A stretch of 41,473 bases of DNA from an uncultured archaeon (GTDB lineage Archaea; Aenigmatarchaeota; Aenigmatarchaeia; CG10238-14; SCSR01). The position numbers and the translations under genes were made by a program. Below are positions 1,953 to 29,968 of this stretch, piece after piece; positions within the stretch are counted from its first letter, which is position 1, and each line of letters starts with the position of its first letter. The notes beneath the pieces are model-generated. The model was not told the DNA's origin. It ran no database searches and was given only the letters and a program-made list of their open reading frames with translations. Where the stretch lies: NCBI GenBank assembly GCA_964570195.1, contig CAZMWU010000002.1, forward strand, positions 1 through 41,473. Reading direction: 5' to 3'.

Positions 1953-2600
1953 CTATTTAAAAATAACTCCTGTTTCTTTCGACCACAACAATAAATCCAA
2001 TTCATCTAGCATAATTCCTAATCTATCAGCAAATTTTTTCATCCTAGCTTCTATTTCCAGATATCTCTTTTTAGTAAGTGATTTAGGTATCTCATCAATC
2101 ACGCCAAATTCTTTCAGGTTTTTCAAGATGTGGACATCAAGTATTGCCAATTGGTTTTTAGTTAGTCCAATATTTCTTATAAAATGTGACGTTTCTTTCA
2201 TTCCTAATCCTTTTACATTATCCAGTAGCCAGTCTCGCAACAAAACAGGATCATTTTTAGTTTCCGATAATTTATCTTTGATTGATATTCTACCATCTCC
2301 ACTAAACAGCTTTCTTGCCGCAACCAAATACTTGCTCTTATTATCAGCAAATCTTACAGCTTGGAGAAATGGTCTTACTTGTTCCACTGTACCGTTCAAA
2401 AGGAGATTCTTTCTTTCCAGAGATTGGATGGCATTCCATGCTGTAGTTGCTTTCGACTGTGGCGTCATCAGACAGAATGCAAGTTCACCGAACACTTTCT
2501 CATCAGACTGATTTAATACATCCTTGAATTCGCTTAGCCTTTTTCTGATTTCACCTTTCTTAACTTCATAACCTTTCAAAATATCATCCACGGGGTTCAT
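1953..2600 (-). CDS. ogg: Archaeal Ogg2-type 8-oxoguanine DNA glycosylase / DNA lyase (HhH-GPD fold)
   Basis: FCLMTPQSKA, RF..NKSKY, a helix-hairpin-helix GLGMKETSHFIRNIGL and the AILDVHIL Asp motif. The layout matches archaeal N-glycosylase/DNA lyase. Confidence 0.8.
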   Translation of the reverse strand: MNPVDDILKGYEVKKGEIRKRLSEFKDVLNQSDEKVFGELAFCLMTPQSKATTAWNAIQSLERKNLLLNGTVEQVRPFLQAVRFADNKSKYLVAARKLFSGDGRISIKDKLSETKNDPVLLRDWLLDNVKGLGMKETSHFIRNIGLTKNQLAILDVHILKNLKEFGVIDEIPKSLTKKRYLEIEARMKKFADRLGIMLDELDLLLWSKETGVIFK

Positions 2601-3690: not shown

Positions 3691-4011
3691 TTATCCAAGT
3701 AGCTTGATTTCAATCCTGATATCTGTCGGGATGTTCACTCGCATTATTTGCCTAAGCGCCCTGTCGTCGGCTTGGACATCCAGTACCCTCTTATGGATAC
3801 GCATTTCCCATTTTTCCCAAGTCGCGTTTCCGTGACCAGTTCCGTCCCCAGAAGGTGTCTTCAAAGTTGTAATCTTCATTTTCTTTGTCGGCAATGGTAT
3901 GGGACCATGATAATCTATTCCAAATTTCTTGGCAATCTCTCTAATCTCATTTGATACGCCGTCCAATTCCTCCGGATTCTTCCCGCTCAGTTTTATTCTC
4001 GCTATTTGCAT
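3691..4011 (-). CDS. rps10: 30S ribosomal protein S10 (uS10)
   Basis: 106 aa. ARIKL.G....LD, GPIPLPTK and the HKR..D signature are typical of uS10. Confidence 0.95.
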   Translation of the reverse strand: MQIARIKLSGKNPEELDGVSNEIREIAKKFGIDYHGPIPLPTKKMKITTLKTPSGDGTGHGNATWEKWEMRIHKRVLDVQADDRALRQIMRVNIPTDIRIEIKLLG

Positions 4012-4154
4012 ACTCTCTTAATTAGATGATTACTTTAAAAAGGTTTACTGAGGAAAGAACTAGTTACTTAGCTTTGACCACATAGAGCAATTCAGATGTT
4101 TAAAAGTTGTCTAACCTTTTGACACTTAATATCAATCCAAAGGAGTTAGATAAC

Positions 4155-5420
4155 ATGGTTAGCGAGTATCAGATAAAGAAGTTAGAAACTGATTTGAGGA
4201 AGCTTCAAAACACTACCAAAATAAATCAGTTACAGAAGGATAAGATATTCAAATTCTTAGATTTGATTAATGCTCAAGGCAGGTCTCCAGCTACAAAAAG
4301 GAATATTATCTGGGCACTAATGACAACAGGAGAGATGTTAGGGAAGCCATTCGAGGAGGCTACATACGATGACATTGTTCGTATTGTTGGAGATGTAGAA
4401 AAGAGATATCAGAGTGGTAAAACTAAGAAAATGCTGAAAGCTGAAATAAGAAGATTTTACAAATGGCTGAGGCAGACATCTGATTTTCCACCAGAAGTAT
4501 CGTGGATAAAGTTGGATTACAAGGTTGACACAGAAAGTAAGATAGCCCCAGAGGATATGCTTGCAGACAGTGAGGTAGACGCTTTAGCGAATGTTACCCT
4601 GAACTCTAGAGACAGAGCTCTAGTTTATATGTTGGCTGAAAGCGGTTGCAGGATAGGAGAACTACTTGCTCTGAAAATCAAGAACATAAAATTCGATAAC
4701 AAAGGTGTTCTATTACATATTCCAGAAGGTAAGACAGGAAGACGTCAGGTAAGACTTGGAAACCACACTAAAGAACTTTTGAAGTGGTTAGATGAGCATC
4801 CCTCTAAAGAAGACCCAGAAGGACCAGTATGGGTTTCTTTGAGTAACAACTCGAAAAACAAGTGCTTGACTTATGTTGGTGTTGAAATTCTTTTGAAAAG
4901 ATTAGCTGTAAAATGCGGTTTAGGTAAGTGGATAGGTGGGAATGGTGGATTAGGTAGCAAACCACGTGGTCGATATGTAGGAAGACCAGTAAATCCTCAT
5001 AATTTTCGGCATAAAAAGGCGACAATGCTATTAATCCATAAAGGCATTCCAGAAGCTATAGTGAAAAGGTATATGGGATGGTCTAATCATTCAAGGATGG
5101 TAGAAATTTACACTCATTTTAATGACCAAGATGTAGACAATGCAATTCTCGAGTCCAATGAAATTGATGCAAAAAACGTAGAGAAAATGATTCCAGTAGA
5201 CTCTAGAATATGTGCCAACTGTGGGGAGGTCAACACAATACTCTCGCATTTCTGCAAAAAGTGTAATAACTTATTGGACTTGTCCGTAGCATGGAAAGAG
5301 AAGGATATAGCTGTAGCAAAAATTTTGGAAGAATTGAAGAATGATGAGTGGTTTAGAGAAAAGGTAAAGGAAATAATTAGCAAGTTGAATTTGGAAAAGG
5401 AATTTATTGAACTTGATTGA
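4155..5420 (+). CDS. Tyrosine recombinase / integrase with a C-terminal zinc-ribbon extension
   Basis: Catalytic-residue pattern R (ESGCRIGELLALK), HxxR (HNFRHKKAT) and Y (VEIYTHF). CxxC...CxxC (CANCG...CKKCN) follows the catalytic Tyr. ATG at 4155 is preceded by GGAG; the ORF track's TTG at 4107 is an alternative start. Confidence 0.85.
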   Translation: MVSEYQIKKLETDLRKLQNTTKINQLQKDKIFKFLDLINAQGRSPATKRNIIWALMTTGEMLGKPFEEATYDDIVRIVGDVEKRYQSGKTKKMLKAEIRRFYKWLRQTSDFPPEVSWIKLDYKVDTESKIAPEDMLADSEVDALANVTLNSRDRALVYMLAESGCRIGELLALKIKNIKFDNKGVLLHIPEGKTGRRQVRLGNHTKELLKWLDEHPSKEDPEGPVWVSLSNNSKNKCLTYVGVEILLKRLAVKCGLGKWIGGNGGLGSKPRGRYVGRPVNPHNFRHKKATMLLIHKGIPEAIVKRYMGWSNHSRMVEIYTHFNDQDVDNAILESNEIDAKNVEKMIPVDSRICANCGEVNTILSHFCKKCNNLLDLSVAWKEKDIAVAKILEELKNDEWFREKVKEIISKLNLEKEFIELD

Positions 5421-5589
5421 CAATAGTTATTATAGCTTTTTCTGGTATATCCCATCCTCTTTCAATTTCCAATCTTTCTAAGTGGTCCAACACAATTCGC
5501 TTTTCAAAGTTAGTAAAAATTCCAAGATGTTCCATAATAGTGAAATACTTGTTAGATATGGTTCTTATTCTCTCTATGTCAAATATCAT
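5404..5589 (-). CDS. Hypothetical small protein (61 aa), convergent with the integrase
   Basis: Open frame only, with no recognisable motif. Overlaps the integrase 3' end by 17 nt. Confidence 0.25.
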   Translation of the reverse strand: MIFDIERIRTISNKYFTIMEHLGIFTNFEKRIVLDHLERLEIERGWDIPEKAIITIVNQVQ

Positions 5590-5770
5590 ATTATATCCTT
5601 ATCTAATAACTGTTAGGGCACGGTTTAAAAGCTTTCGGTTTTCTTATTTCAAGAAAGCATTTAGACAATTTGTGAAGGAGAGAAATTACCAGACCTTATT
5701 CGTCACCGAAAGTTGAGAGAACTTGTGATTAAGCTTTTATATGAGGTAAATTTAGTCTTATTTAGATGAA

Positions 5771-8062
5771 ATGTTAAAAATCTTGGGTGTGCCTTCGATT
5801 GCAATTGTTTTATTCTTATTTTTATCCTCTTTAGCAATTGCACAAGGTCAGGGGTTTACAGTAACATCTGTTTCTACTTCATCAGTTGTAACAAAAAATA
5901 CCGACCCTATCCAAGTCTATTGGATAGTTAATACACAGTTGACTGGTGGCGGTCAAGCTATAACAGGAACTATTTCTCCAGAAACAGTCAAAAGTTTTAT
6001 GGGTAATAAATTATATACGAACAAATCTCTTCTCATCGAAGCCAGTACTGTAGACGAACAAATATTTTATGAAATTCAAAATGAAGGTATAGGAATTTAC
6101 AAATATAAGGGTCAAACATTCACAGACGCCCCTAACTTCTTAGGTGTTACAACAGGAAACCCTTCACCATGTCCTACTGGAGCTAATTGGGATATACTTT
6201 TAGGCAGAACCCTTTTCAGCTACGGGACAAAAAGGTACTGTATAACTAAAGAACAGGTTGGAATAAAAGGCGTTTACAATAATCCAACTATTGGTTTCAA
6301 TGCAAAAATTAAACTATCTGTTGGTACAGACACGAAAGAGAAAACTATCTGTTCTGGTTCAGTAAGCGGTTGTGACGGCAGTTCAGTTAGCTTTGATAGT
6401 GTCGCTGTAGCTACTTGGAGCGGTTCTTTAGTTACTGGGGACCCAGCACCAAACCAAGATAATTTCGTTGCTATAAAAAGAAACGATATTGGCAAATGGC
6501 AAATAGCAAGAAAATCAACTTATGAAGCTTACTTTCCAAAAGTAGACGTTACTGACCAGAAACTCAATACAGCCAAAACTACTTACGAGAGAAGTTCCGA
6601 TGTAACAAAAGCCGATAAAGAAATAATAGATGCAGTAACACCAGTTAATAATGCTACCGCTACACTCTTGGGTGAAGATACGTCATTTACGTCAACACCG
6701 TTTACAAAGGACGATAATACAGGAAAGGTTACTTTAACACTGAAAAGAAGTCTGACTTCACCTAATATTGTACTCAAAGTAAGAGCTGACTGGATAGGTC
6801 TTGTAATTCCTTCAGGTCAACCTAAGATACTTGGTGTGCAAGCTGAGAAATTTGCCAGCGGTGAGCCTGGAACCATCAGCATCCAAATAGAGAACGTGGG
6901 GGAGGTTGGTGGTACATTTTCTGCAATGTTAGTAAATTGCGACCCATTTGTACAAACAACAACTACTCAAAGTGCGAGAAAAACCTTACAAGCTGGAGAG
7001 GTTGATAGCATAACAATTTCTGTGAGTGGAGGGGATGAAGCACAAACTCTTACAAAATCATGTTCTGTAAAAGTTTATGATGTTAATGAGCCTTCTCAAG
7101 AAGATTTGTATCCACTAACTTTAGAATTGACAACTCCAAAGCTATGTGTTCCAAACAAAGTCATCGCCGATGGCAATATCATCAAAAAATGCAATCAGTT
7201 TGGAACAGGTATAGAAATTGTAAAGACATGCAAGAAAGGTGTAGTATCTGACGGTAAGGGTGGATATATATGCTCAGAAGAGACTTCTAAATACGAGTGT
7301 ATTTCAGATGCACAATGTGGAGAGTTTGCTTACTGTAATTTGGATATTCATGCATGCGTACAAAAGAGTTCTTGTTTGAAAATAATTGATAATGGAGATT
7401 CGAGTTCAAAAATAGATGTCTCGTTTGTTGGAGATGGTTATTCTGATAACCAAGTATTAAAGGACGATGTTGCTAAGCTTGTGGATTATGATGGGAATAA
7501 CGGTTATAATGGCATGATGTCTGTTGAACCATTCAAATCAAACAAAAACAAATTTAACGTTTGGATAATAAAAGGTGGGAATATACCAGCTGATAGTTCT
7601 AACACTGTACTTGGAAATATTCCAGATATTGAAAAGTCTTTAGAAATTTCAGCAGAATGTACATCGGCAGATTACCAAGTTATATTATCTAAGAAAGATT
7701 TCCGTTCTTTTGCATTCTTTTCAGGTGAGGCGTTTGTATCAGTTGAAAATAAAATTGATACTGACGAAGGCAGACTTTTATTACATGAATTTGGACACTC
7801 ATTTGGAAAGTTGGCCGACGAATATGTCGAACCGCAATTGGGCGATAGAGCAACATACCCTAATTGTGCTCCAGACACTTCTACTGCTCAAAAATGGTGG
7901 GGAAGCGTTTCGAATACAGGGATTTTTTCTGGTTGTAGTTATGTTGAAAATAATATAAGACCAACTTTCAACTCGATTATGAGAGATTATTGGATACTAA
8001 AAGATGATTATGGAGAGGTAAATAAATTGGCACTTTTACAAATATTAAATAAATACAGGTGA
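5771..8062 (+). CDS. Secreted multidomain protein with a C-terminal M64 (IgA-peptidase-like) zinc metallopeptidase domain
   Basis: N-terminal signal peptide (LFLFLSSLAIAQG). A CARDB-like beta-sandwich stretch and a Cys-rich linker follow. The C-terminal part has DVSFVGDGYS, PF.SN.NKFNVW and HEFGHSFGKLADEY (nt ~7784-7825), as in peptidase family M64. Confidence 0.7.
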   Translation: MLKILGVPSIAIVLFLFLSSLAIAQGQGFTVTSVSTSSVVTKNTDPIQVYWIVNTQLTGGGQAITGTISPETVKSFMGNKLYTNKSLLIEASTVDEQIFYEIQNEGIGIYKYKGQTFTDAPNFLGVTTGNPSPCPTGANWDILLGRTLFSYGTKRYCITKEQVGIKGVYNNPTIGFNAKIKLSVGTDTKEKTICSGSVSGCDGSSVSFDSVAVATWSGSLVTGDPAPNQDNFVAIKRNDIGKWQIARKSTYEAYFPKVDVTDQKLNTAKTTYERSSDVTKADKEIIDAVTPVNNATATLLGEDTSFTSTPFTKDDNTGKVTLTLKRSLTSPNIVLKVRADWIGLVIPSGQPKILGVQAEKFASGEPGTISIQIENVGEVGGTFSAMLVNCDPFVQTTTTQSARKTLQAGEVDSITISVSGGDEAQTLTKSCSVKVYDVNEPSQEDLYPLTLELTTPKLCVPNKVIADGNIIKKCNQFGTGIEIVKTCKKGVVSDGKGGYICSEETSKYECISDAQCGEFAYCNLDIHACVQKSSCLKIIDNGDSSSKIDVSFVGDGYSDNQVLKDDVAKLVDYDGNNGYNGMMSVEPFKSNKNKFNVWIIKGGNIPADSSNTVLGNIPDIEKSLEISAECTSADYQVILSKKDFRSFAFFSGEAFVSVENKIDTDEGRLLLHEFGHSFGKLADEYVEPQLGDRATYPNCAPDTSTAQKWWGSVSNTGIFSGCSYVENNIRPTFNSIMRDYWILKDDYGEVNKLALLQILNKYR

Positions 8063-8066
8063 ACTA

Positions 8067-8648
8067 ATGAAAAAATCGCTAGCCACAATCATTTTAATAA
8101 TTCTAATGCTTTCATTAACAACTTTTGCTCAAAGTAATTTAGTTTACTCTTTAACTTTAAAATACGACGGTACTACTTTAACTAACGAGGGTCTAAGATT
8201 AATAGAAGGTACTGCTCCAGATAGAATAAATCAACCCGAAAACGGATTCACTTTGAAAGTCACTTCTTTCGATAACGAAGTCCTTCATTCATTCAAATTT
8301 TTGATAGAAACAACACCTATTAGAGCCCCACCAAAGGATATTTTTAGTGAAAATGGTACTCAAATAAAAATTCCTACAGGAGAATCAACTCAAATTACTA
8401 AATCTGTAGTTTTAGTAGTTCCGTATTTCTCAAATGCAATATCTGTTGATATATTGGATTCAAATGACAAACTGATATTATCAGTTGACGTTTCAAAATA
8501 TTCGAAAGTACCAGCTGGATTATCTAGTCTGACAATCTTCATAATACTAGGTATTGGTATAGTAGCGTTCATCGTAGTTTCATTCTTTTATGTTAAGAAA
8601 CGAGAACATAAAGTGAGTATAACTAAACACCATAAGAGAAGTAAGTGA
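8067..8648 (+). CDS. Secreted protein with a C-terminal transmembrane anchor and basic tail
   Basis: Signal peptide (ILIILMLSLTTFAQS). C-terminal hydrophobic helix followed by KKREHK...HHKRSK. Starts 4 nt after the upstream stop. Confidence 0.55.
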   Translation: MKKSLATIILIILMLSLTTFAQSNLVYSLTLKYDGTTLTNEGLRLIEGTAPDRINQPENGFTLKVTSFDNEVLHSFKFLIETTPIRAPPKDIFSENGTQIKIPTGESTQITKSVVLVVPYFSNAISVDILDSNDKLILSVDVSKYSKVPAGLSSLTIFIILGIGIVAFIVVSFFYVKKREHKVSITKHHKRSK

Positions 8649-8652
8649 GTAT

Positions 8653-8913
8653 ATGAAAAATGATATTAGAGATATAACTATTTTAATTATCACACTACTT
8701 TTTATTGCTCCGAATATTTTTGCACAATCTCAAGCAGATGTTGAGGTAACAGCATTGCCTTTAGAAGTTACATCACCTATTGAAACAAGTCAGTCATCTG
8801 ATACATCATCGCTTATAGCATATGTAGTTGTTATTGGCGTTCCTATTTTAGGAATAGGTTTACTTTATTTTGGTATAAAAGGTTTATTAAAAAGCCGTAA
8901 TAAAAAAAGATGA
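8653..8913 (+). CDS. Small secreted protein with a C-terminal transmembrane anchor
   Basis: 86 aa. Signal peptide (LLFIAPNIFAQS), a Ser/Thr-rich middle, a C-terminal TM helix and a KSRNKKR tail. 4-nt gap from the upstream gene. Confidence 0.5.
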   Translation: MKNDIRDITILIITLLFIAPNIFAQSQADVEVTALPLEVTSPIETSQSSDTSSLIAYVVVIGVPILGIGLLYFGIKGLLKSRNKKR

Positions 8914-8917
8914 AAGT

Positions 8918-9457
8918 ATGAGGATTTATCTAATCTTAAGCTTGATTGGACTTGTTTTTCTTGCGGGATGTACGCAATTAAATATCTCAAGTATGAGTTC
9001 TGGTAGATGTCATGAACTTGCTGAAGAGATGATACCCGATAAAATTAACTTACTAATAGGTACACAACAGAACGTTCCAGGAGATTGGAGTCTCCCAACA
9101 GGGGCATTTGGAAGCTACGAAAGTTTTTGGAACGATGGGTCAGAAATTACTGCACCGTATATGATGTCTATCTATTTTAGGCCAGGAAATCAAGAAGGTG
9201 AGAATGTTAACTACTACTATTTTGAAAAAGGAAAGTTCATCTATGAAGACAATTCTCTCAAGTATTCAAAGCAAATAATCAATGATGATGGCGTGATATT
9301 AGGAATCCGTGAGTTTGGAATTGCACCTACATTGAAAGAGATTCCAGGTAGTGAGAACCATATTTCAGACATCCACAAGATTAAAAGTTTTGAAATTATT
9401 AAACCTAATTTTATTTTTTGCTATTGGGTTACAGACGAGGGAGAAAGTATTAAATGA
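8918..9457 (+). CDS. Putative lipoprotein
   Basis: Lipobox-like VFLAGC after a hydrophobic N-terminus. 4-nt gap from the upstream gene. Confidence 0.55.
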   Translation: MRIYLILSLIGLVFLAGCTQLNISSMSSGRCHELAEEMIPDKINLLIGTQQNVPGDWSLPTGAFGSYESFWNDGSEITAPYMMSIYFRPGNQEGENVNYYYFEKGKFIYEDNSLKYSKQIINDDGVILGIREFGIAPTLKEIPGSENHISDIHKIKSFEIIKPNFIFCYWVTDEGESIK

Positions 9458-9621
9458 AACTGTCCAAGCAAAAAATAAGCTTCGTTCTGAAAAATTTTGG
9501 CATCGGTCTTGGCACAGCATCGCTTATTTACGGAGTCACAAATAGTTTTGACATCCGTGTATACAGTTTGTTATTTCTTGCACTTAGCTTTATTGTAAGC
9601 AATTGGTTGTGGAAGAAATAA
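9454..9621 (+). CDS. Small (55-aa) two-helix membrane protein, below the ORF-track cutoff
   Basis: Hand-translated as MKLSKQKISFVLKNFGIGLGTASLIYGVTNSFDIRVYSLLFLALSFIVSNWLWKK. Its ATG overlaps the upstream TGA (ATGA), suggesting translational coupling. Two hydrophobic segments. Confidence 0.4.
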   Translation: MKLSKQKISFVLKNFGIGLGTASLIYGVTNSFDIRVYSLLFLALSFIVSNWLWKK

Positions 9622-9631
9622 AAAATTAGAT

Positions 9632-10906
9632 TTATTGTATGAGAGGTTCAAAAACTAAATAGCTATTATCTCTTGTGCTGTTGGCATCCACACATTCTGA
9701 ATTAGTTTTTAATGCTATTTGAGGCGAATTTAGAAACTCATAATTCAAAACATTAGAAAAGTTTAAACTATTGGTTGAGGAATGTATCCAAGGGCCACAT
9801 CTCTGCCATACTATTTGCGTTGCATTAAGAGTTTGGTCACAGATAAAGACACTGTAATTTGTTACCCGTTCCTTTATCAAATCTGAGTATTGACTTCTAT
9901 AAATATCATCGGGAATTGTAAAAACATAATCTTGAAAACAAACTTGAAAATTTTCTAAATTATTCAAATATATGGGGACAATGTATTGTACACGTCCAGT
10001 ATTAGTAACATATTTCCAAAAGGGGCTTTGTATATCTGATATCCATGCATTATGAAGAGGAAATGTATCGCCACGATATCCGAGTTTTACATTGATTTTT
10101 TCATATGTCCATCCATCACCGAAACCATAAAGCTTTGCAGAATTTTTATCCTTGTTAACGTGAGATACTAAGAAGGGTTGTATGTTCTCATACCAAACAT
10201 CGGTTAAATTGGAAGGTGATAAAGGTATTGTCACATCTCTATCAATTGGTATAAGTGGTGGTTTTATTTCTAATTCAACCCTACTAGATACAAAATCTCT
10301 TCGAGTATTATTAATAGTACGTATTGACCCAAACCTGATTTCGTTATCTAAAACAGAAACTTTTGGCAAAAATATAGGCCACACCACTTGAATTGTTAAC
10401 ATAAAACTCAAAAATATTGCAGCATATTTCCACCAATGCTTACGAAATTCCTCATTCTTAAACGCCGATATTGCGATAATTGTAAAGAAAAATAAAACTA
10501 GAATTGGATAAAGTGAAATAAGTGATTTTTGATACAGAATCAGAAATATGTATATATACAGCAATAGAGTACCTATGACTACTCCCATTACAATTGATAA
10601 CGCCATGTTTTTTATAAGCTGTCTCGAAAGCTTATTTCGACTGTCGGTTTGTAAGATTTTTTGACTGGGTTTATACCCCTTTTTATTTTTAATAACCAAG
10701 TTTCTGTTCTTCCAAAAGTGGGTGACTATCGTCACAATCCAAATAAGTGCAACTCCTTCAAGAAAAACTCCTATGATAAAATAAATCATTGCAACAGGAG
10801 TGACTATACCTAGCTTATCCAATCCGAATAAAGAAATTGCAAGACCAGTTCCTAACATTGTCAATGGAATACCAAAAAGATTACTCAAACGCTCTATTAT
10901 AGACAT
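9632..10906 (-). CDS. Polytopic membrane protein with a large C-terminal non-membrane domain (unknown function)
   Basis: About 5-6 hydrophobic helices in the first ~180 aa, then ~240 aa that are Asn/Tyr/Trp-rich and soluble. No recognisable motif. Confidence 0.55.
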   Translation of the reverse strand: MSIIERLSNLFGIPLTMLGTGLAISLFGLDKLGIVTPVAMIYFIIGVFLEGVALIWIVTIVTHFWKNRNLVIKNKKGYKPSQKILQTDSRNKLSRQLIKNMALSIVMGVVIGTLLLYIYIFLILYQKSLISLYPILVLFFFTIIAISAFKNEEFRKHWWKYAAIFLSFMLTIQVVWPIFLPKVSVLDNEIRFGSIRTINNTRRDFVSSRVELEIKPPLIPIDRDVTIPLSPSNLTDVWYENIQPFLVSHVNKDKNSAKLYGFGDGWTYEKINVKLGYRGDTFPLHNAWISDIQSPFWKYVTNTGRVQYIVPIYLNNLENFQVCFQDYVFTIPDDIYRSQYSDLIKERVTNYSVFICDQTLNATQIVWQRCGPWIHSSTNSLNFSNVLNYEFLNSPQIALKTNSECVDANSTRDNSYLVFEPLIQ

Positions 10907-10964
10907 AGTTTTTAATTGAGAATAAAGCTATTTAACCCATTCCCTTCTTGTAACTTCTGTTAAG

Positions 10965-11510
10965 TTATGCACCATCATAATTTTTTTTGAATAAAGCTTT
11001 TTCAACAACCCTCAGATTGAGATTATGTTTGTTTGCTATTTTTCTTAGTTTCTCCAGAAGTTTTATGTAGTGGTTAGGATTAGTAATGTCTTTCGGTCTT
11101 GTTTTAGGGTTGGTAGCAAACACCTCATCGTATATGTGTATATCAAACACACCGTAGTTTTTTGGGTCATAAAATGTTAAGATAGCACTTGCTACAGCTA
11201 GCCCGACGCTTTTAATTTCCATAAGATACTTCAATCTTAGGAGTTCATCATCGGTAGTAAAAGCTAGGTTAGACAGTCTTTTTATTTCATTATCATCAAC
11301 TTTTTCAACCAAGTTTAATTCTCTTTTCAATCGGTGTTTGTTTGTTGCAAATTTCCATTTGATAACTTGAATCAAATCTTCTTTAGCCATTTTTTTATTT
11401 GTTCTGAATCTATTTCCCAATTCAGCTTCTAGTTTTGGAGACCATTGGTCTTCTTCAGCATCGTATTTCTTACATAAATCTAGAATTTGTTCTTTCGTTA
11501 TGTCAATCAT
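10965..11510 (-). CDS. Hypothetical protein with a helix-hairpin-helix / OGG-fold-like C-terminal motif
   Basis: IKSVGLAVASAILTFYDPKNYGVFDIHIYDEVF resembles the HhH plus Asp segment of HhH-GPD glycosylases (compare AILDVHIL in the Ogg at 1953-2600). No clear catalytic Lys. Motif-level call only. Confidence 0.35.
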   Translation of the reverse strand: MIDITKEQILDLCKKYDAEEDQWSPKLEAELGNRFRTNKKMAKEDLIQVIKWKFATNKHRLKRELNLVEKVDDNEIKRLSNLAFTTDDELLRLKYLMEIKSVGLAVASAILTFYDPKNYGVFDIHIYDEVFATNPKTRPKDITNPNHYIKLLEKLRKIANKHNLNLRVVEKALFKKNYDGA

Positions 11511-11544
11511 ATATCTAGATTAGTTCTTCATCCAATAAAAAGCT

Positions 11545-11808
11545 CTAACCCTTTAACTTCTGAAGCTCTTTCAGAACTTCCAAACCAAGCTTAGTTATCT
11601 TATACAATTTACCTACTCTTTCATGTGGTGTCAGACATTCTATGAGTTTCTTCTTTTTAAATTCCTTCAAAGCTCTTGATACATGTGTAGAATAAAGTCC
11701 GCTCTTCTTTGCTACAACACTGGGAGTAATGGGTTCCCTAAGTAACGGTAATATCTGCTTTCTCTGTTTGCTTCGAGACACGAATGATACCAAATCCCAC
11801 TTGACCAT
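11545..11808 (-). CDS. Small winged-helix (ArsR/MarR-like) transcriptional regulator
   Basis: 87 aa. The pattern ...ILPLL.EPITPSVVAKKSGLYSTHVSRALKEFKKKKLIE...GKLYKITKLG is a classic HTH plus wing. Confidence 0.65.
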   Translation of the reverse strand: MVKWDLVSFVSRSKQRKQILPLLREPITPSVVAKKSGLYSTHVSRALKEFKKKKLIECLTPHERVGKLYKITKLGLEVLKELQKLKG

Positions 11809-11902
11809 AAATTAGTCTTCTAAGACCTAATTCTAAACAGAATATGACCAAAGTATTACCAACTAACAACAAACTTAAATATCTGAATTTTTAGTTAAAA
11901 TT

Positions 11903-12499
11903 ATGGGTTGGAAAAAGAAGCTCCTAATAGGTTCTGTTTCAATAGTTTTCGTTCTGGTAGCTTTGGGTGTTTTATTTGGGGGCAGTGAAACCGAAAGTTC
12001 TAAAACAACTGGACAGGTAACTGGGGTATCAGAACAGCAATCTTTAACCATGAAATCTGCAAGTGAAATGTTACCAACGAGAGAAGAGATTCCGACGGAA
12101 TTTGTAATGAGCACTGTAAATGATATTAGCACCTCCGTTTCCGTGTCTGGTTTGGAAGAGGCTAAAAGTATTTCTACAGATAAGATAGAAGGGAGTTTCG
12201 GGGTAATTTCAGTTGGTTATTCAGTTTACAAGTTTTCGACAGTTGAAGATGCGATAGTATATCATAATGGTTTAGTTGATAACGTAGTTCAGGTTGGTGG
12301 ATACGAAGAGATTAAATTATCTAGTGACAACTGCTTTAGTTATAAGGAGGATTACGGATTTGAAGCTAAGATGGGTCAAGGTATTTGTGTTGAGAAAAAT
12401 GTTGTTTTTACAGTAGGTTTTGCTTCATCGAACTCTTTCAAAAGTCCCGACGGCTTTATCAAAGATGGTATAAAATTACTTGATAAAAAGGTGAGTTAA
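11903..12499 (+). CDS. N-terminally anchored extracytoplasmic protein (unknown function)
   Basis: A single N-terminal TM/signal-anchor (LLIGSVSIVFVLVALGVLFGG) followed by a soluble domain. Confidence 0.5.
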   Translation: MGWKKKLLIGSVSIVFVLVALGVLFGGSETESSKTTGQVTGVSEQQSLTMKSASEMLPTREEIPTEFVMSTVNDISTSVSVSGLEEAKSISTDKIEGSFGVISVGYSVYKFSTVEDAIVYHNGLVDNVVQVGGYEEIKLSSDNCFSYKEDYGFEAKMGQGICVEKNVVFTVGFASSNSFKSPDGFIKDGIKLLDKKVS

Positions 12500-12519
12500 T
12501 TAACTCTATTTTAATATTT

Positions 12520-13353
12520 TTGTTGTTGAGTGTTGTTTTTCTAGTTGGATGCACGACACAACCTTCTACAACAGGACAAATTGTAGAATCCACACCATTA
12601 GAAGAATCTGAAGTACCAGAACAAAAAATAATTCAGAATGAATCTGAAATCATTTCTCAGGGAAAAGTAACAAAAAACGTCTCTCCTATTGATTTTTGTT
12701 CCTCGTTGCAATTTGATGCCGTTACAGGAAGATGGTCGCCATACAAATATGAAATTTCCATAACTAACTTAGGCTTGGACATTGATGAAGATGTCGAAAT
12801 TTCCACAATAGACAACAGTATTGTCATTGATGAAATCAGATTCATAGATTGGTTGAGTCAAAATGTTAAGACTATCTATATGGATGCAGGTATTAGAACA
12901 TTAAGAATCAAGCCTGCAAGTTGTGCGAAAGGATTTATTATTGATTTGAACATGCCTGTGCCCAAACAGTGTTCCGTGACGATTTCTGATTTAAGATGGT
13001 CGGGAAATTATGATGATAAGGTATTTCTCACTTTCAATGTGGAAGGATATGATACTTTTGAACAAAATGTAACTACAACAGTCAGTACGGGAAATCATCA
13101 ACGTTGTGTATACCCTGAAAGTGAGGGAGGGTTGCGAATATTTATGTCTGATTCGTATGTTGTCTATAATGACCGCACAGCAATAGTCGGCTCCTCTCAA
13201 GTATCAAAGGAGATGGTGATGAATATAGACAAAGAGCATTGTGAATATACTAATCAAATTAAAGTAAATGTCTCTTCATCGCAGTGCGAACTATTCCTAA
13301 AACACTATAATTTATCTACAGATGATTCGATAGACGGAAGAGTTGCTGGTTAA
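12520..13353 (+). CDS. Putative lipoprotein / secreted protein (unknown function)
   Basis: Short hydrophobic N-terminus ending in LVGC (lipobox-like). TTG start with no in-frame ATG nearby, so the start is uncertain. Confidence 0.45.
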   Translation: MLLSVVFLVGCTTQPSTTGQIVESTPLEESEVPEQKIIQNESEIISQGKVTKNVSPIDFCSSLQFDAVTGRWSPYKYEISITNLGLDIDEDVEISTIDNSIVIDEIRFIDWLSQNVKTIYMDAGIRTLRIKPASCAKGFIIDLNMPVPKQCSVTISDLRWSGNYDDKVFLTFNVEGYDTFEQNVTTTVSTGNHQRCVYPESEGGLRIFMSDSYVVYNDRTAIVGSSQVSKEMVMNIDKEHCEYTNQIKVNVSSSQCELFLKHYNLSTDDSIDGRVAG

Positions 13354-13518
13354 AGTGATATTGGACGTGAATGATTTAGAGAGCGAAAGATAAACTCGTA
13401 CTAAGCATTAAATTCATTTTATGAAATGATAAGATATGTTAAGCAAAACGGCAAAAAGTAAACCATAAAGTATTATCCGACCAGAAAATTTTGTGCGTAC
13501 ACTAGAAACGGACTTGTT

Positions 13519-13543
13519 GAACCTTTCACTTCGTGAAAGGTTC
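13519..13543. repeat. Perfect 11-bp inverted repeat (hairpin) between convergent genes
   Basis: gaacctttcac-ttc-gtgaaaggttc, read directly from the sequence. Confidence 0.85.
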
Positions 13544-13630
13544 ACATCCCCTCCGTCCCCAATCAAATCTATATGAAATTTTCGATGAAAGCATAAAGTG
13601 TAAAGGATTTGTAAAAGAAATAAGCATAAA

Positions 13631-14104
13631 TCATTTAGATAGCTCTAGGTCCTTTTTCCAAGTTAGCTTTCCCTTCTTCTTGAGATACTCTTTATGTCCT
13701 TCTTTGAGCAATTGTTCTACTTTTCTACCATGTTCACTGTTCTTTTCATCCTCTCGAACTTCATCCCAATCAGTTGTATCTAACACATGTCTCGATTCGG
13801 GACTCATGGATTCTCTCAGTCTTTTGTTGCGTTCCTTGTAGTATTTGCCAACATTCTTTTTATTTTTACGTTGGGTATTCCTCAAGTCTTGTTCGTGATT
13901 ATACGTAGCTATGTACAGCGACATCCCAATCGGAGGGACTTGCGGATTTGAAATTTTCAATATCCCGTTGTCTGGGTCGGCTTGTATTCCGACTGGTATC
14001 TTACCTTTGTCCTGAGGTATATCCCACCCCATTGAAATAATCATGTCGCTTGGTAAACCTTCAATGGTGAAGTTTCTCTTGGTTTTTCTGATATAACTTC
14101 CCAT
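13631..14104 (-). CDS. Hypothetical protein with a highly charged Lys/Glu/Arg-rich C-terminal half
   Basis: 157-aa ORF with no recognisable motif. Confidence 0.4.
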   Translation of the reverse strand: MGSYIRKTKRNFTIEGLPSDMIISMGWDIPQDKGKIPVGIQADPDNGILKISNPQVPPIGMSLYIATYNHEQDLRNTQRKNKKNVGKYYKERNKRLRESMSPESRHVLDTTDWDEVREDEKNSEHGRKVEQLLKEGHKEYLKKKGKLTWKKDLELSK

Positions 14105-14160
14105 ACATGATATTGCCTAGGGCAAAGTTTTATAGATGAAATTTTCCACATTCTTACTCA

Positions 14161-14295
14161 ATGTTAAGAAAACAGGTTTTGTTAGCTGAAAAGGAAGTAG
14201 AAAGGGTTAATCAACTGCGAGAGAATGAAACAAGAAGTTTCAGTTCCATGTTGCGAGTACTTCTACAGAAAGCTTTGAAAAATGAGGTTGTCTGA
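14161..14295 (+). CDS. Ribbon-helix-helix (CopG-like) small DNA-binding protein, below the ORF-track cutoff
   Basis: Hand-translated as MLRKQVLLAEKEVERVNQLRENETRSFSSMLRVLLQKALKNEVV. It has an N-terminal beta-strand-like segment and the RS.S..LR.LL..AL helix pattern of RHH proteins. Its stop overlaps the next ATG. Confidence 0.45.
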   Translation: MLRKQVLLAEKEVERVNQLRENETRSFSSMLRVLLQKALKNEVV

Positions 14296-14399
14296 TGACT
14301 AAGCTGTATCCAAAATCCTGGCAAGTCATTTTAGAAATCCTGAAAGAAAAGAAAATGCCCGTTCCTGAAGCGGGCAAAGGAATTGATACCAATGAATAG
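14295..14399 (+). CDS. Very small hypothetical ORF (34 aa)
   Basis: Hand-translated as MTKLYPKSWQVILEILKEKKMPVPEAGKGIDTNE. Its ATG overlaps the upstream TGA and its end overlaps the next ATG. Only the overlapping-gene context supports it. Confidence 0.25.
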   Translation: MTKLYPKSWQVILEILKEKKMPVPEAGKGIDTNE

Positions 14400-14634
14400 A
14401 TTAAACAAGGCTGATTATAAATCTCAGATGCAACAAGATGGAATCGATGCAGTATTCTTACGGGTTAAGAACGAGTTGGACGATTTCACACCTTTCATAA
14501 CTTATCCAGTCTTTTTCACATGGGCTAAATTTTTGAAATATCACAAGCCTGAACTATGGAAAATAATTTTCGAATTGAAACGCAGGAAGTATATTCGATT
14601 AGTTCGCGGGCATGGATTTGAAATTCTCAAGTGA
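14392..14634 (+). CDS. Small hypothetical protein, possible winged-helix
   Basis: 80 aa from the ATG at 14392 (the ORF track uses TTG at 14383). The C-terminal ELKRRKYIRLVRGHGFEIL resembles a recognition helix plus wing. Weak. Confidence 0.4.
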   Translation: MNRLNKADYKSQMQQDGIDAVFLRVKNELDDFTPFITYPVFFTWAKFLKYHKPELWKIIFELKRRKYIRLVRGHGFEILK

Positions 14635-15346
14635 TTTTATGAGGAGCAAACACGGTTTCAAGTTTATATCAAAGATACCCAGCGACAATTTGCCCATCCT
14701 TCACGAGAGCTGGCAAGAATATGCTGATAAAGTCGACCCGAATGAAAACGACAGGGCAAAGAATATCACATATGACTTACCCCAAATCGGCAAGGTAACA
14801 GTCTCACATACAACAGGAACAATCACGATAGACACAAATAAAAGTCAGAAAGAGCTCCTAAAAACAATAAGAAAATATGTTGGTGGTAGACAGTACGAAT
14901 CCTTCGAGAGTAATCTAGTATGCAAAGAAGCTGGTGCACACTTCAGGAAGTTCCATGGAACGGTAGGGTATATTCTCAATGTCAAACAACCAGGTAAGAT
15001 ACCTATTTTCCTAAGTGCAAGAGGGTGCAACAGTTATGCAGACATACATATCAAAATTCCATGGAAGATGGCAGACATAGAGGACTTTTCAAAAAAGGAC
15101 TATACCCCTACCAGTACCCCTATACGGAAATACACCTTAGACACGGATATTTTAGACTTGGTAAAAAAACGAGATGTAGTTAGAACAAAAGACTGTTCTG
15201 CGGTAAACCTATCTGAATCCGCATTTTATCGCAGACTAGAGAAATTACGTATCCAGGGCAAGCTCACTAGAACAAACAGATACCCAGCCCTGTATATGTC
15301 TAATCCATTGATTTTGCAAAAAGCGAAACAAGATTTATATTCTTAA
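14612..15346 (+). CDS. Hypothetical protein with a C-terminal HTH-like segment; candidate element replication or regulation protein
   Basis: 244 aa, overlapping the upstream ORF by 23 nt. The C-terminal LSESAFYRRLEKLRIQGKLTR resembles an HTH. The function is inference from context only. Confidence 0.45.
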   Translation: MDLKFSSDFMRSKHGFKFISKIPSDNLPILHESWQEYADKVDPNENDRAKNITYDLPQIGKVTVSHTTGTITIDTNKSQKELLKTIRKYVGGRQYESFESNLVCKEAGAHFRKFHGTVGYILNVKQPGKIPIFLSARGCNSYADIHIKIPWKMADIEDFSKKDYTPTSTPIRKYTLDTDILDLVKKRDVVRTKDCSAVNLSESAFYRRLEKLRIQGKLTRTNRYPALYMSNPLILQKAKQDLYS

Positions 15347-15383
15347 GAAACTAACTAAGAAATGGGTTAGACAAAGTTCAACA

Positions 15384-16661
15384 TCATTTGGCTTTAACCA
15401 CATCAAGAACTACGCCGGCAGCCACAGTCATTCCCATATCTCTGATAGCAAACCTAGCCAATTGTGGAAATTCCGATTGCTTTTCAATGACCATAGGCTT
15501 CAAGGGCTTCACTTTAATCCTTGCGGCATCCCCTGTCTTGATGAAGTCTGGTTTTTCCTGGACGACCTGCCCCGTCTTCGGATCTATCTTTGCTATTATT
15601 TCTTCAATCGTGCATGCTACCGCTGCCGTGTGTGCATGGAATACAGGCGTATATCCGGCAGTCACCACAGTAGGATGGTTCAAAACAATAATCTGCGCTG
15701 TAAACTCAGAAACAACTGTTGGCGGGTTGTTTGGATGTCCGATAACATCACCTTTCTTTATCTGCGACTTGTCTACACCTCTTACATTAAATCCTACATT
15801 ATCACCTGGCACGGCTTGTGGCAGTTGCTGGTGATGGATTTCTATCGATTTGACTTCGCCAGTCACACCTGCAGGCTGGAAAACAATAGTATCATTAATT
15901 TTCATCACGCCTGTCTCCACTCTTCCAACAGGAACGGTACCGACGCCAGTGATAGAATAAACATCTTGTACAGGAAGTCTCAATGGCTTGTCAGTTGGCT
16001 TATCGGGCTCTTTTATAAATTGATCCAAAGCTTCAATCAAAGTAGGGCCATTATACCAAGGCATCTTGTCCGATTTCTTCGCTACGTTATCACCAACATA
16101 TGCCGATGCCGGAATGAATGGTATTTCCGCGACCTTGTAGCCAATCCCTTGCAGAAGTTTCGTAACTTCGACTTTCAATTCCTCGAATCTCTTCTGGTCA
16201 TAACTTGCCGCATCCATCTTGTTCAACACAACCAACATCTGGCCTATTCCGAGGACTTTCATCAACCAAGCATGTTCTTTTGTCTGTTCCTGTATTCCTT
16301 CACCCGGCTTTGCAGATACAACAAAAATCGCAGCATCGGCCTGTGAAGCGCCTGTAATCATGTTCTTGACAAAATCCCTGTGGCCTGGAGCATCAATAAG
16401 AGTGAAATACCATTTTTGTGTTTCAAATGGTCTGTGCATAATGTCAATCGTAACCCCTCTTTCACGCTCTTCCTTGACCTTGTCCATCACGAACGCGAAT
16501 TCAAATGTCTCCTTCTTCAGTTCAGTGGCAACCTCTCTCAGTTTTCTCATTTCTTCTTCCCTGATTGATCCTGTGTCATATAGAAGTCTTCCGACTAGAG
16601 TAGACTTCCCTGCGTCTACATGTCCTGATGTCATTATGTTAATGTGCGGTTTTGTTGGCAT
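15384..16661 (-). CDS. tuf: Translation elongation factor aEF-1 alpha
   Basis: [17 protein letters not shown] and NKMD GTPase motifs. Full-length, 425 aa. Confidence 0.97.
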
Positions 16662-28528: not shown

Positions 28529-29968
28529 TTATTGTGCCTTGGCCAAAGCCTGCTTAGATATACTCATTCTCTTAACCTTGTGCCTGTCCAAGAAAAACAT
28601 CTGTGCCACTGGCAAGCTTAAATGCCCAACAATATCAACAACAGGCCTTATTCTGTATGTAACAACCCTTTCTTCACCAGATTTCATGGAGCCTATATTC
28701 CACCTCAACTCTGTCCCGTCTGGAACTCTCTTCGCTTTCGGTCTTAACGTATCAAATCTATCAACAACCCTTGCTATCTGCGGCACAACATCAATAATTT
28801 CCACATCCTTGATTTCATGCAGTGCCCTGTTTTTCACTTCAAGTAGAACTAGTATTTCCTTGCCTCTTGTTATTTCGCCTTCGTGTCTTGTCATTTTGCC
28901 AATTCTTGGTTTGGACAACCATCTATATGCCCCATAACCTATTCCCCCTATTAGACCAATTGTCAGCCAAATTCTCCAGATAGCGATTTTATATTCTACA
29001 GTATACTGTCCGCCAGGAGCTAATGCAGGAACAGACCATGTATATACCACACGATTTGCAGACGAGTCGATTGTTGTCGGTTCTATATCCGGATCAAACA
29101 GGCTTTGTGCAAATTTCGGAAGCGATTCTGTTACAGTAAATGCAGGCAGTTCAACATTCCCTTCATTTTTAACTCTCACCGACACAGATGAAAACAAGAC
29201 ATTGTAACCACTGGATTTTGTAGTGTATTCTGTAGGCGTCTGTGTGACAGTGTTAACGTTGAAATTTACTGATTTGGAATATTTTAGTTGGTTTGTCGTG
29301 TCTCTTAGTTCGGTTTCAACCACATAACCTCCCGGTACAGCATATTTGTCTAGAGCAAAACTCTTCGGGACGTTAACAGAAGATTTCGCACCGATAGCAT
29401 CTAAACTCTCCTCAAATGTTTTCACCACAGCAACCCCTTTTCTAACAGCTATTTTTAGGAAATATTTCCCAGATCTAGTCTCTTCAAGATTGAAAACCTT
29501 GACCGCGATTTGAACTTCCTCGCCAGGATTAAGTGTGTACTTTTCTAGTGACATGTCTGGAATGTAAACTGGTGTCTGTCGCTGGATTATTAAAATCAAA
29601 TTCTCGCTATCAGACACAGATTCATAAGACGTCGATTTGGCAGTGACTGTAAATAAAGGCGACAGCAAGTCAGCATCGAGTGCAACAGTCAGGTACATCT
29701 TTACCACCTTTTCTTCGTTTGGTGCAAGGGTTAAAAGAAAGCTTTCTAGATTAGCGGTGACTTTTTCAAATTGAGAAGGAAATAAAGACAATGTAAACGT
29801 GTCCGCCTTATCTTGCATATTTTTTACAATCACATCTACAGTCTGAGTTTCTGCCGTATATCCAATCAAACTACCAGTCGATAATGAGACATCCACTCCT
29901 GCTGCAAATGTTGCTGATAAGCTAATCATGAAAGCGAAGATGAAGGTAGAAATCAGAAGTCTTTTCAT
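28529..29968 (-). CDS. Cell-surface protein with repeated beta-sandwich (CARDB/DUF11-like) regions and an internal transmembrane helix
   Basis: Signal peptide (FAFMISLSATFAAG), then ~320 aa of Val/Thr-rich beta-type sequence. A TM helix (IWRIWLTIGLIGGIGYGAY) follows, then a ~125-aa domain with the pattern V.L.V.N......V.I.D..P. Confidence 0.55.
   Translation of the reverse strand: MKRLLISTFIFAFMISLSATFAAGVDVSLSTGSLIGYTAETQTVDVIVKNMQDKADTFTLSLFPSQFEKVTANLESFLLTLAPNEEKVVKMYLTVALDADLLSPLFTVTAKSTSYESVSDSENLILIIQRQTPVYIPDMSLEKYTLNPGEEVQIAVKVFNLEETRSGKYFLKIAVRKGVAVVKTFEESLDAIGAKSSVNVPKSFALDKYAVPGGYVVETELRDTTNQLKYSKSVNFNVNTVTQTPTEYTTKSSGYNVLFSSVSVRVKNEGNVELPAFTVTESLPKFAQSLFDPDIEPTTIDSSANRVVYTWSVPALAPGGQYTVEYKIAIWRIWLTIGLIGGIGYGAYRWLSKPRIGKMTRHEGEITRGKEILVLLEVKNRALHEIKDVEIIDVVPQIARVVDRFDTLRPKAKRVPDGTELRWNIGSMKSGEERVVTYRIRPVVDIVGHLSLPVAQMFFLDRHKVKRMSISKQALAKAQ

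Follow-up and report, generated by a model that had tools for sequence, protein, structure and literature searches.

A protease-fused fusexin without a membrane anchor and its anchored partner: a candidate two-gene surface system in a DPANN archaeon

To our knowledge, fusexins are the only protein family that fuses cells in eukaryotic sex as well as enveloped viruses to their hosts, and archaeal members of the family were reported in 2022. Here, we describe a locus of five open reading frames (ORFs) in a 41,473-nucleotide stretch of DNA from an uncultured archaeon (GenBank assembly GCA_964570195.1, contig CAZMWU010000002.1, positions 1 to 41,473 of the forward strand; this whole stretch is referred to as the window). 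Its first gene encodes a fusexin ectodomain that is continued by an M64-type metallopeptidase instead of a membrane anchor, and its second gene (ORF2) encodes a membrane-anchored protein. Together, genes 1 and 2 make up a candidate device for cell contact or cell fusion in a very small, symbiotic archaeon of the DPANN group (Diapherotrites, Parvarchaeota, Aenigmarchaeota, Nanoarchaeota as well as Nanohaloarchaeota).

The closest described system is archaeal Fsx1. Canonical Fsx1 consists of a signal peptide, an ectodomain and one to four transmembrane (TM) helices (PDB 7P4L; Moi et al. 2022, PMC9259645), and the published Fsx1 genes sit in integrated mobile elements. The 2022 paper contains no mention of a peptidase, of a form lacking TM helices or of a partner gene, and the word 'peptidase' is absent from it; the metagenome screen for fusexins that it reports used topology filtering (PMC9259645). 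Fusexin screens that filter by TM topology, as this one did, will tend to miss an anchorless class. No paper in the literature that we searched ties fusexins to DPANN biology beyond citations. The fusexin family as such is already known and is covered by Pfam and NCBIfam models, whereas the anchorless, protease-fused form with its partner is undescribed in the same literature. An anchorless fusexin clade with interchangeable proteases and an anchored partner constitutes a concrete and testable two-gene system, which bears on the natural role of archaeal fusexins and on how DPANN archaea connect to their hosts.

The product of gene 1 (protein 1) starts with a signal peptide, its only N-terminal hydrophobic segment, as had been read in an earlier note made from the DNA letters alone. 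Residues ~27-503 form a complete four-domain class II fusogen ectodomain of the Fsx1/HAP2 type (coordinates of this and all other features are collected in Table 1). Compared with the NCBIfam Fsx1 model (NF053506), protein 1 gives E = 1.2e-28 over residues 151-506, reaching position 492 of 610 in the profile. The corresponding score of 99.9 bits lies far under the equivalog cut-off of 650, so that protein 1 is a member of Fsx1 at the domain level and not an equivalog. A phmmer comparison with the Fsx1 crystal structure 7P4L gave E = 4e-15, and precomputed matches to Pfam PF28161 'Fsx1' are present on protein 1 and its relatives, a few of which match PF10699 HAP2-GCS1 (E = 1.3e-10 for relative P0024). 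Identity to 7P4L is only ~19%, and protein 1, unlike Fsx1, is not of the highly acidic, halophile type.

An AlphaFold2 model of protein 1, built from 37 homologs, has predicted local distance difference test (pLDDT) values of 80-95 over residues 30-500. In a Foldseek search with this model the top match was 7P4L (4e-27), followed by plant, algal and red-algal HAP2 (5e-17 to 1e-13) and, in third place, by alphavirus E1, hantavirus Gc and dengue E (~1e-9), and all listed class II matches had a probability of 1.00. The three-domain fold is hence shared with HAP2/GCS1 and viral class II proteins across the range from 5e-17 to 1e-9, and predicted viral glycoproteins were also matched in BFVD. Like archaeal Fsx1, protein 1 has, besides its signal peptide and domains I-III, two long helices that form a hairpin within domain II (248-272 and 278-300 in the model), a disulfide in domain III and a domain IV with two disulfides.

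The cysteine pattern supports this assignment at the level of individual residues. C390, C431, C459, C474, C487 and C501 are invariant among the 37 sequences aligned. In Fsx1, a disulfide joins C389 and C432 in domain III, C457-C477 and one further disulfide belong to domain IV, and cysteines C125-C155 lie around the cd (fusion) loop S143-V148 (Moi et al. 2022, PMC9259645). The C390-C431 pair matches the domain III disulfide, the four domain IV cysteines match the archaeal-specific domain IV of Fsx1, and C157 aligns with the cysteine immediately after the cd loop in the phmmer alignment. Between C134 and C157, residues W139, L143, G145 and F/W149 are conserved throughout the sub-clade in the pattern W-x-I/L-x-L-G-x-S-x-F/W, which makes this hydrophobic loop a candidate fusion loop. 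The earlier note had described the N-terminal region as novel, with a CARDB-like segment. Its fold is instead a known one, given the Fsx1 profile, the 7P4L match and the HAP2 and viral matches in Foldseek; CARDB was unmatched in protein 1 at E <= 1 in Pfam, and the segment in question is the Ig-like domain III of the fusexin.

Past the signal peptide, hydropathy analysis revealed no segment of TM grade in protein 1, and hence no membrane anchor of the Fsx1 type. The stem and TM helices of canonical Fsx1 are replaced in protein 1 by a Cys-rich linker and an M64 domain, and an anchored partner is encoded by the next gene. HAP2 and viral class II fusogens differ from protein 1 in the same respect, as they carry their own TM anchor (one in HAP2 and in the viral proteins), and we know of no HAP2 or viral class II fusogen with a protease domain. 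The best family match of the linker is weak (Dickkopf_N-like, E = 0.38, Pfam), and a similar cysteine linker precedes the M64 domain of the related protein P0202. The Cys-rich linker of the earlier note is present as a six-cysteine knot, but the Cys-rich region that it outlined also includes fusexin domain IV.

The C-terminal domain passes the Pfam threshold for Peptidase_M64 (residues 537-688, E = 2.1e-11; 44 bits, where the gathering score is 26), as expected from the motif on which the M64 call had first been made. The motif itself, HEFGHSFGKLADEY (H672-Y685), agrees with two solved M64 structures from Bacteroides, 3P1V and 4DF9, and corresponds to the HEFGHSFGxLADEY signature of the family, as found in the Clostridium ramosum IgA peptidase and in Bacteroides lipoproteins (3P1V, 4DF9/9QDI). 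Only positions 2-164 of the 302 in the Pfam profile align to protein 1, while hhalign with free-standing archaeal M64 proteins covers residues 540-763 down to their last residue (E = 2.3e-32); together, these two results indicate a complete but compact M64 variant. The zinc-binding and catalytic HExxH motif and the DEY, PNCA, GCSY and NSIM motifs are conserved in 19 of 19 full-length M64-type homologs aligned (one with HEFAH), and the conserved motifs downstream of the signature are shared with the free-standing archaeal proteins. The domain is thus complete, and its catalytic motif is intact. It differs from the Clostridium and Bacteroides M64 peptidases in its compact catalytic domain, in the lack of an N-terminal beta-sandwich in cis and in its fusion behind a fusogen. 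The nearest relatives of the M64 domain are archaeal proteins of ~383 aa with an N-terminal TM anchor.

The distribution of this architecture was surveyed with a profile of the ectodomain, which was searched against 1.84 billion representatives (E <= 1e-3, clusters at 50% identity) and retrieved 930 family clusters. By a simple hydropathy count on the listed representatives, most carry one to four C-terminal TM helices, and those with none are nearly all close relatives of protein 1 (~45-65% identity). Loss of the anchor therefore seems, from these counts, to be specific to the sub-clade of protein 1. Within this sub-clade, the position of the stem and TM helices is occupied by an M64 metallopeptidase in ~20 proteins including protein 1, by a C25 (gingipain-type) cysteine peptidase in P0021 (E = 3e-17), and in others by a large Cys-rich domain that has no family assignment (P0027, P0033) or by a Gly-rich tail. 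The Cys-rich domain appeared transglutaminase-like by eye, a resemblance that found no support in Pfam or in PDB sequence searches.

Close homologs of protein 1 come from metagenome-assembled genomes (MAGs) of Nanoarchaeota, from Aenigmatarchaeota and from archaeon GW2011_AR20, whose complete 829-kb genome holds an M64-type ortholog that is 63% identical to protein 1. One protein of this archaeon, AJF63093.1, is listed as Fsx1 in Supplementary Table 1 of the original report (Moi et al. 2022, PMC9259645). It is probably this same ortholog. In a MAG labeled 'Methanosarcinales', the fusexin-M64 gene (locus L014, 2161-4421) is split into ORFs of 592 and 94 aa by a frameshift or stop, or by an assembly error. 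Because all other hosts are DPANN archaea, the label of this MAG may be due to mis-binning.

The second gene of the locus, ORF2, encodes a type I membrane protein in which a signal peptide and a seven-stranded beta-sandwich ectodomain (residues 25-141) precede a TM helix at 152-179, and the cytoplasmic tail is rich in K/R (AlphaFold2 model, pLDDT 80.8). It belongs to a family of 18 members that corresponds to no Pfam family and is defined by a beta-sandwich of ~120 residues with ~20 invariant positions, among them Y33, R53, Q56, P57, F76, F78, D141 and Y145 of ORF2; some members add a C-terminal cytoplasmic zinc ribbon. Eleven related loci were gathered by exact-protein look-up, four loci coming from species genomes and six from metagenomes, and some of them re-sample the same contig. 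An ORF2 homolog (30-59% identity) lies no more than 10 nt 3' of the M64-type gene in all 11 of the 11 loci with a visible downstream region. Approached from the side of ORF2, an M64-bearing gene is found directly upstream in six of six metagenome loci, one of which re-samples a contig already counted.

The conservation ends with this pair. All five ORFs (5771-9621) are co-directional and tightly spaced, with three 4-nt gaps and one ATGA overlap between ORF4 and ORF5, exactly as the earlier note had laid them out. This spacing suggests co-transcription, and export or a membrane location is predicted for each of the five products, both of which would suit the interpretation given there: a single membrane-tethered extracellular protease/adhesin complex of five proteins, with a novel, non-fusogen N-terminus. 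Searches of the eleven loci with blastp and phmmer --max gave no homologs of ORFs 3-5, nor of the 424-aa membrane protein or the remaining genes of the surrounding inserted DNA, and the gene after ORF2 is convergent, on the opposite strand, in most of them. The conserved module thus comprises only genes 1 and 2, with ORFs 3-5 as local additions, and the five-gene arrangement recurs elsewhere only in its first two genes. With three of the five genes not conserved and the N-terminus a known fold, the five-protein complex is largely refuted and must be regarded as very improbable.

The partner gene also changes with the type of C-terminal domain. The ectodomains of Cys-rich-type fusexins are 54% similar to that of protein 1, as close as those of the M64 type (47-63%), and ORF2 is absent after the Cys-rich type. 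These genes have a partner of their own, which overlaps them by 7 nt, encodes 301-333 aa and is present in three of three loci with 37-43% mutual identity. In this second partner, a signal peptide and a DUF11/CARDB-like beta domain are followed by a region rich in cysteines and then by a TM helix, and the protein ends with a basic tail and between one and three zinc ribbons. The C25-type fusexin is followed by a gene for a lipobox protein. At a further locus (L024, 33-2202), the visible N-terminal 150 residues of an M64 protein are helical (TPR-like) and not fusexin, and 1 nt after it starts a divergent ORF2-like protein, 334 aa long and without a TM helix. The pairing of M64 with an ORF2-type protein thus exists outside fusexins. 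Judging by these neighborhoods, ORF2 appears to be tied to the M64 domain and not to the fusexin. Since ORF2 follows M64-type and not other fusexins, and given the pairing at L024, we infer that the ORF2 ectodomain binds the M64 domain.

Two groups of described proteins show a comparable organization. A second membrane protein is present alongside the fusogen in alphavirus E1/E2, flavivirus E/prM, hantavirus Gc/Gn and Chlamydomonas HAP2/MAR1, as it is here, and ORF2 has no similarity to E2, prM, Gn or MAR1. Polymorphic surface and toxin proteins have swappable C-terminal domains and cognate downstream partner genes. The sub-clade of protein 1 resembles them in placing alternative C-termini (M64, C25, Cys-rich, Gly-rich) on one N-terminal scaffold and in having a type-specific downstream gene. 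It differs from them in that the partners are exported membrane proteins and not cytoplasmic immunity proteins, and in that the scaffold is a membrane fusogen.

The window carries chromosomal genes for split RpoA, split RpoB, EF-2, EF-1alpha, S7, S10, DNA ligase, ThrRS and the CCA-adding enzyme. EF-2 is >90% identical to a protein of a Candidatus Aenigmatarchaeota MAG, and this identity, together with the hosts of the homologs, identifies the host as a DPANN archaeon, in keeping with the putative episymbiotic archaeon of the earlier note. The DNA of the window is present in groundwater metagenomes. In the archaeal str cluster, the genes for S10 and EF-1alpha are normally adjacent. In the window, they are separated by ~11.4 kb (4012-15383), with a guanine-plus-cytosine fraction of 0.353 versus 0.392. 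At the left edge of this island lies a gene for a XerA-like tyrosine recombinase (Pfam Phage_integrase, E = 8e-19; NCBIfam recomb_XerA_Arch, E = 5.5e-27, below the equivalog cut-off), and the island is rich in exported or lipobox-like proteins without a known family. Like archaeal Fsx1, protein 1 is encoded in integrase-bearing and probably inserted DNA. Integrases are also found near the fusexin genes of L001-L003, L006, L009, L010, L014 and L015, and other genes at the related loci encode primase-polymerases and resolvases as well as a DUF87 ATPase, a D5-like helicase and, at one locus, a terminase; apart from these, the neighbors are unrelated. The island is likely a mobile element.

The reading that we favor, with about even confidence, is that genes 1 and 2 encode a two-part surface fusogen/protease and are carried, in a DPANN archaeon from groundwater, on a small integrative element. 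Protein 1 would be exported and its M64 end would dock on the membrane-anchored beta-sandwich ectodomain of ORF2, so that the TM-bearing members of the ORF2 family would make up in trans for the fusexin's lost membrane anchor. The peptidase would cleave a proteinaceous surface layer, either the S-layer of the target cell or the producer's own, and this clearing would expose the target membrane to the hydrophobic loop of the fusexin. The complex could then drive tight membrane apposition or fusion of the DPANN cell with a host or recipient, with host contact and/or transfer of the element as the outcome. ORFs 3-5 would be lineage-specific exported or membrane proteins that are co-transcribed with the core and stand outside the conserved machine. 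Fsx1 fuses cells even when its own TM helices are swapped for a single TM helix or a glycosylphosphatidylinositol anchor (PMC9259645), which implies that the type of anchor is not critical and that some anchor is still required. A broader proposal, which we consider unlikely at present, would extend this to DPANN archaea or their small elements in general: they would carry split class II fusogens, made up of a protease-armed fusexin and a separate anchor, that open the S-layer and merge membranes, thereby making the cytoplasmic bridges that are observed between DPANN cells and hosts or moving the element.

In the main alternative, the same parts would form a targeted surface protease or adhesin that acts without fusion. 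The fusexin ectodomain would then be a membrane- or glycan-binding, trimerising stalk that places the protease on a neighbor or on the cell's own surface, and ORF2 would serve the M64 domain as a subunit that regulates it, inhibits it or presents its substrate. Protein 1 has no TM helix in cis, whereas a class II fusogen must be held in one membrane, and the exchange of three or four unrelated, effector-like C-terminal domains on one ectodomain is the pattern of delivery or display scaffolds. The TM-less ORF2-like protein of L024, paired with a non-fusexin M64 protein, makes the M64-ORF2 pair independent of fusion, and domain IV of Fsx1 has been published as resembling carbohydrate-binding folds. 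However, the entire fusogen apparatus is conserved, with the hydrophobic loop, the helical hairpin of domain II and the disulfides of domains III and IV, and in every TM-less type examined a membrane-anchored protein is encoded directly downstream, which fits a need to remain on the membrane of the producer. We therefore regard the protease/adhesin explanation as possible, if somewhat doubtful.

Enveloped viruses are the best-known source of class II fusogens, which they usually encode beside a companion membrane protein. Protein 1 could accordingly be imagined as the class II envelope fusogen of an integrated virus, with ORF2 as its companion in the manner of E1/E2 or E/prM and with the protease helping the virus to pass the S-layer of the host. 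Virion genes, whether for capsid, portal or other parts, were not recognized in the island of the window, no relative was found among 2.9 million viral contigs of IMG/VR, and proteins 1-4 have no PHROG matches. In favor of a viral origin are the class II viral matches in Foldseek, the integrase that adjoins gene 1 and the match of one island protein to a PHROG of unknown function. Among the related loci, a large terminase subunit is encoded upstream of the fusexin gene in L008 and primase-polymerase or D5-like replication genes are present in L006, L009 and L012, but the neighboring genes are wholly different between loci. A TM-less viral envelope fusogen would be just as unusual as a cellular one. 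An origin as a virion protein seems quite improbable.

Several observations weigh against a trans-anchored fusogen/protease on a mobile element. We know of no precedent for a class II fusogen with a non-covalent tether, and a fusogen tethered in trans might not pass on the force that fusion needs. The M64 part of the AlphaFold2 model is of low confidence (pLDDT 45-80), and the binding of the ORF2 ectodomain to this domain is predicted solely from the co-occurrence of the two. The ORF2-like protein of L024 indicates, by its missing TM helix, that anchoring is not universal in the partner family. The best Foldseek match of ORF2, to the Bacteroides M64 peptidase BF3526, which has an N-terminal beta-sandwich, speaks for such binding but is weak (E = 0.077), and no sequence link between ORF2 and M64 N-terminal domains was detected by hmmsearch against PDB, in Pfam or by hhalign with the N-domains of archaeal M64 proteins. 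The idea that ORF2 is a detached M64 N-terminal domain was accordingly not adopted and is kept as a lead only. In a search for support of co-transcription, the locus occurred in none of the RNA runs found.

The mobility of the island meets similar objections. A search for direct repeats between 3600 and 16000 and a targeted comparison of the junctions gave attachment (att) site matches at chance level only, and neither an empty site nor an excised form was seen in four groundwater metagenome runs, in which the depth of the island equals that of its flanks and contigs span both borders. Compared with the haloarchaeal Fsx1 elements, the island, of ~11 kb, is small, and the VirB4/HerA/TraG-type genes that have been reported from those elements are all missing from it. 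Carriage on a mobile element, as the earlier note had it, is thus backed by the adjacent integrase, the interruption between S10 and EF-1alpha and the location of relatives near integrases, primases and resolvases, but not by att sites or an empty site, and is likely rather than demonstrated.

Table 1. Coordinates of the features discussed (positions refer to the window unless a related locus is named)
Feature	Position	Strand	Remarks
Gene 1 (fusexin-M64)	5771-8062	+	763 aa
Signal peptide, protein 1 residues 1 to ~24	5771-5842	+	hydrophobic segment 4-22; model helix 6-19, then AIAQG
Fusexin domains I-III, residues ~27-445	5849-7105	+	Fsx1 profile, 7P4L, Foldseek, pLDDT
Candidate fusion loop, residues 134-157, CPTGANWDILLGRTLFSYGTKRYC	6170-6241	+	between two conserved domain II cysteines
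Fusexin domain IV, residues ~455-503	7133-7279	+	small beta domain, cysteines C459, C474, C487, C501
Six-cysteine linker, residues 504-536	7280-7378	+	from sequence; where canonical Fsx1 has stem and TM helices
M64 metallopeptidase domain, residues 537-763	7379-8062	+	Pfam and hhalign
HEFGH-x7-DEY motif, residues 672-685	7784-7825	+	within M64 domain
ORF2	8067-8648	+	193 aa
ORF3	8653-8913	+	86 aa
ORF4	8918-9457	+	179 aa
ORF5	9454-9621	+	55 aa; mechanical ORF only; putative gene
TATA-box-like ttttatat	5735-5742	+	~28-36 nt before gene 1 ATG; direct sequence reading
Second partner family	L009 10517-11422; L017 8451-9386; L018 4383-5384		after Cys-rich-type fusexins
S10	3691-4011		same strand as EF-1alpha
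EF-1alpha	15384-16661		same strand as S10
Tyrosine recombinase/integrase, XerA-like, C-terminal zinc ribbon	4107-5420	+	left edge of inserted stretch
424-aa multi-TM protein	9632-10906	-	island
181-aa island protein	10965-11510	-	weak Ogg-type HhH glycosylase fold, E = 0.002; phrog_24538, E = 1.8e-8
87-aa wHTH-like protein	11545-11808	-	island
198-aa protein	11903-12499		island
277-aa protein	12520-13353		island
Ogg-HhH glycosylase, genuine	1953-2600	-	E = 1e-55; outside island
479-aa protein	28529-29968	-	weak DUF11 and CARDB matches; outside island

The expression signals of the locus were read directly from the sequence. The TATA-like box before gene 1 is a putative archaeal promoter that would give a leaderless or short-leader mRNA, and an aggtga similar to a Shine-Dalgarno sequence lies 5' of ORF2. 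The two together fit an archaeal operon with a leaderless first gene.

By hydropathy, the ORF3 product has a signal peptide or N-terminal TM helix, a Ser/Thr-rich stretch, a C-terminal TM helix and a basic K/R tail, and for both ORF2 and ORF3 this agrees with the signal peptide, C-terminal anchor and basic tail that had been proposed from the DNA alone. With a short exposed segment between its signal peptide and TM helix, ORF3 is pilin-like in layout, and its Pfam match to TrbC/VirB2 pilin (E = 0.001, 19.6 bits) is below the cut-off of 27.9 and was treated as noise. The N-terminus of ORF4, MRIYLILSLIGLVFLAGC, contains a lipobox-like motif (LVFLAGC), as previously pointed out, and ORF4 has no family match in Pfam, NCBIfam or PHROG. 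ORF5, previously taken as a two-helix membrane peptide of 55 aa, is indeed a hydrophobic peptide of this length, with one clear hydrophobic segment and a second one that is only weak.

Contigs from several groundwater runs begin to match the window only at 4183, 7742, 8899 or 9610, and their sequence before these points is unrelated to it. This pattern suggests that strain or element variants co-exist, with recombination breakpoints that fall within the M64 domain and where ORF3 and ORF5 end.

At related locus L008, the large terminase subunit (Terminase_6N, 6228-7691) is encoded just upstream of the fusexin-M64 gene, and a restriction-modification pair, an Hjc resolvase and a DNA ligase follow downstream; this locus may represent a provirus-like or satellite element. 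Outside the island of the window, the host archaeon probably has another surface protein in the 479-aa product, which matches DUF11 and CARDB weakly.

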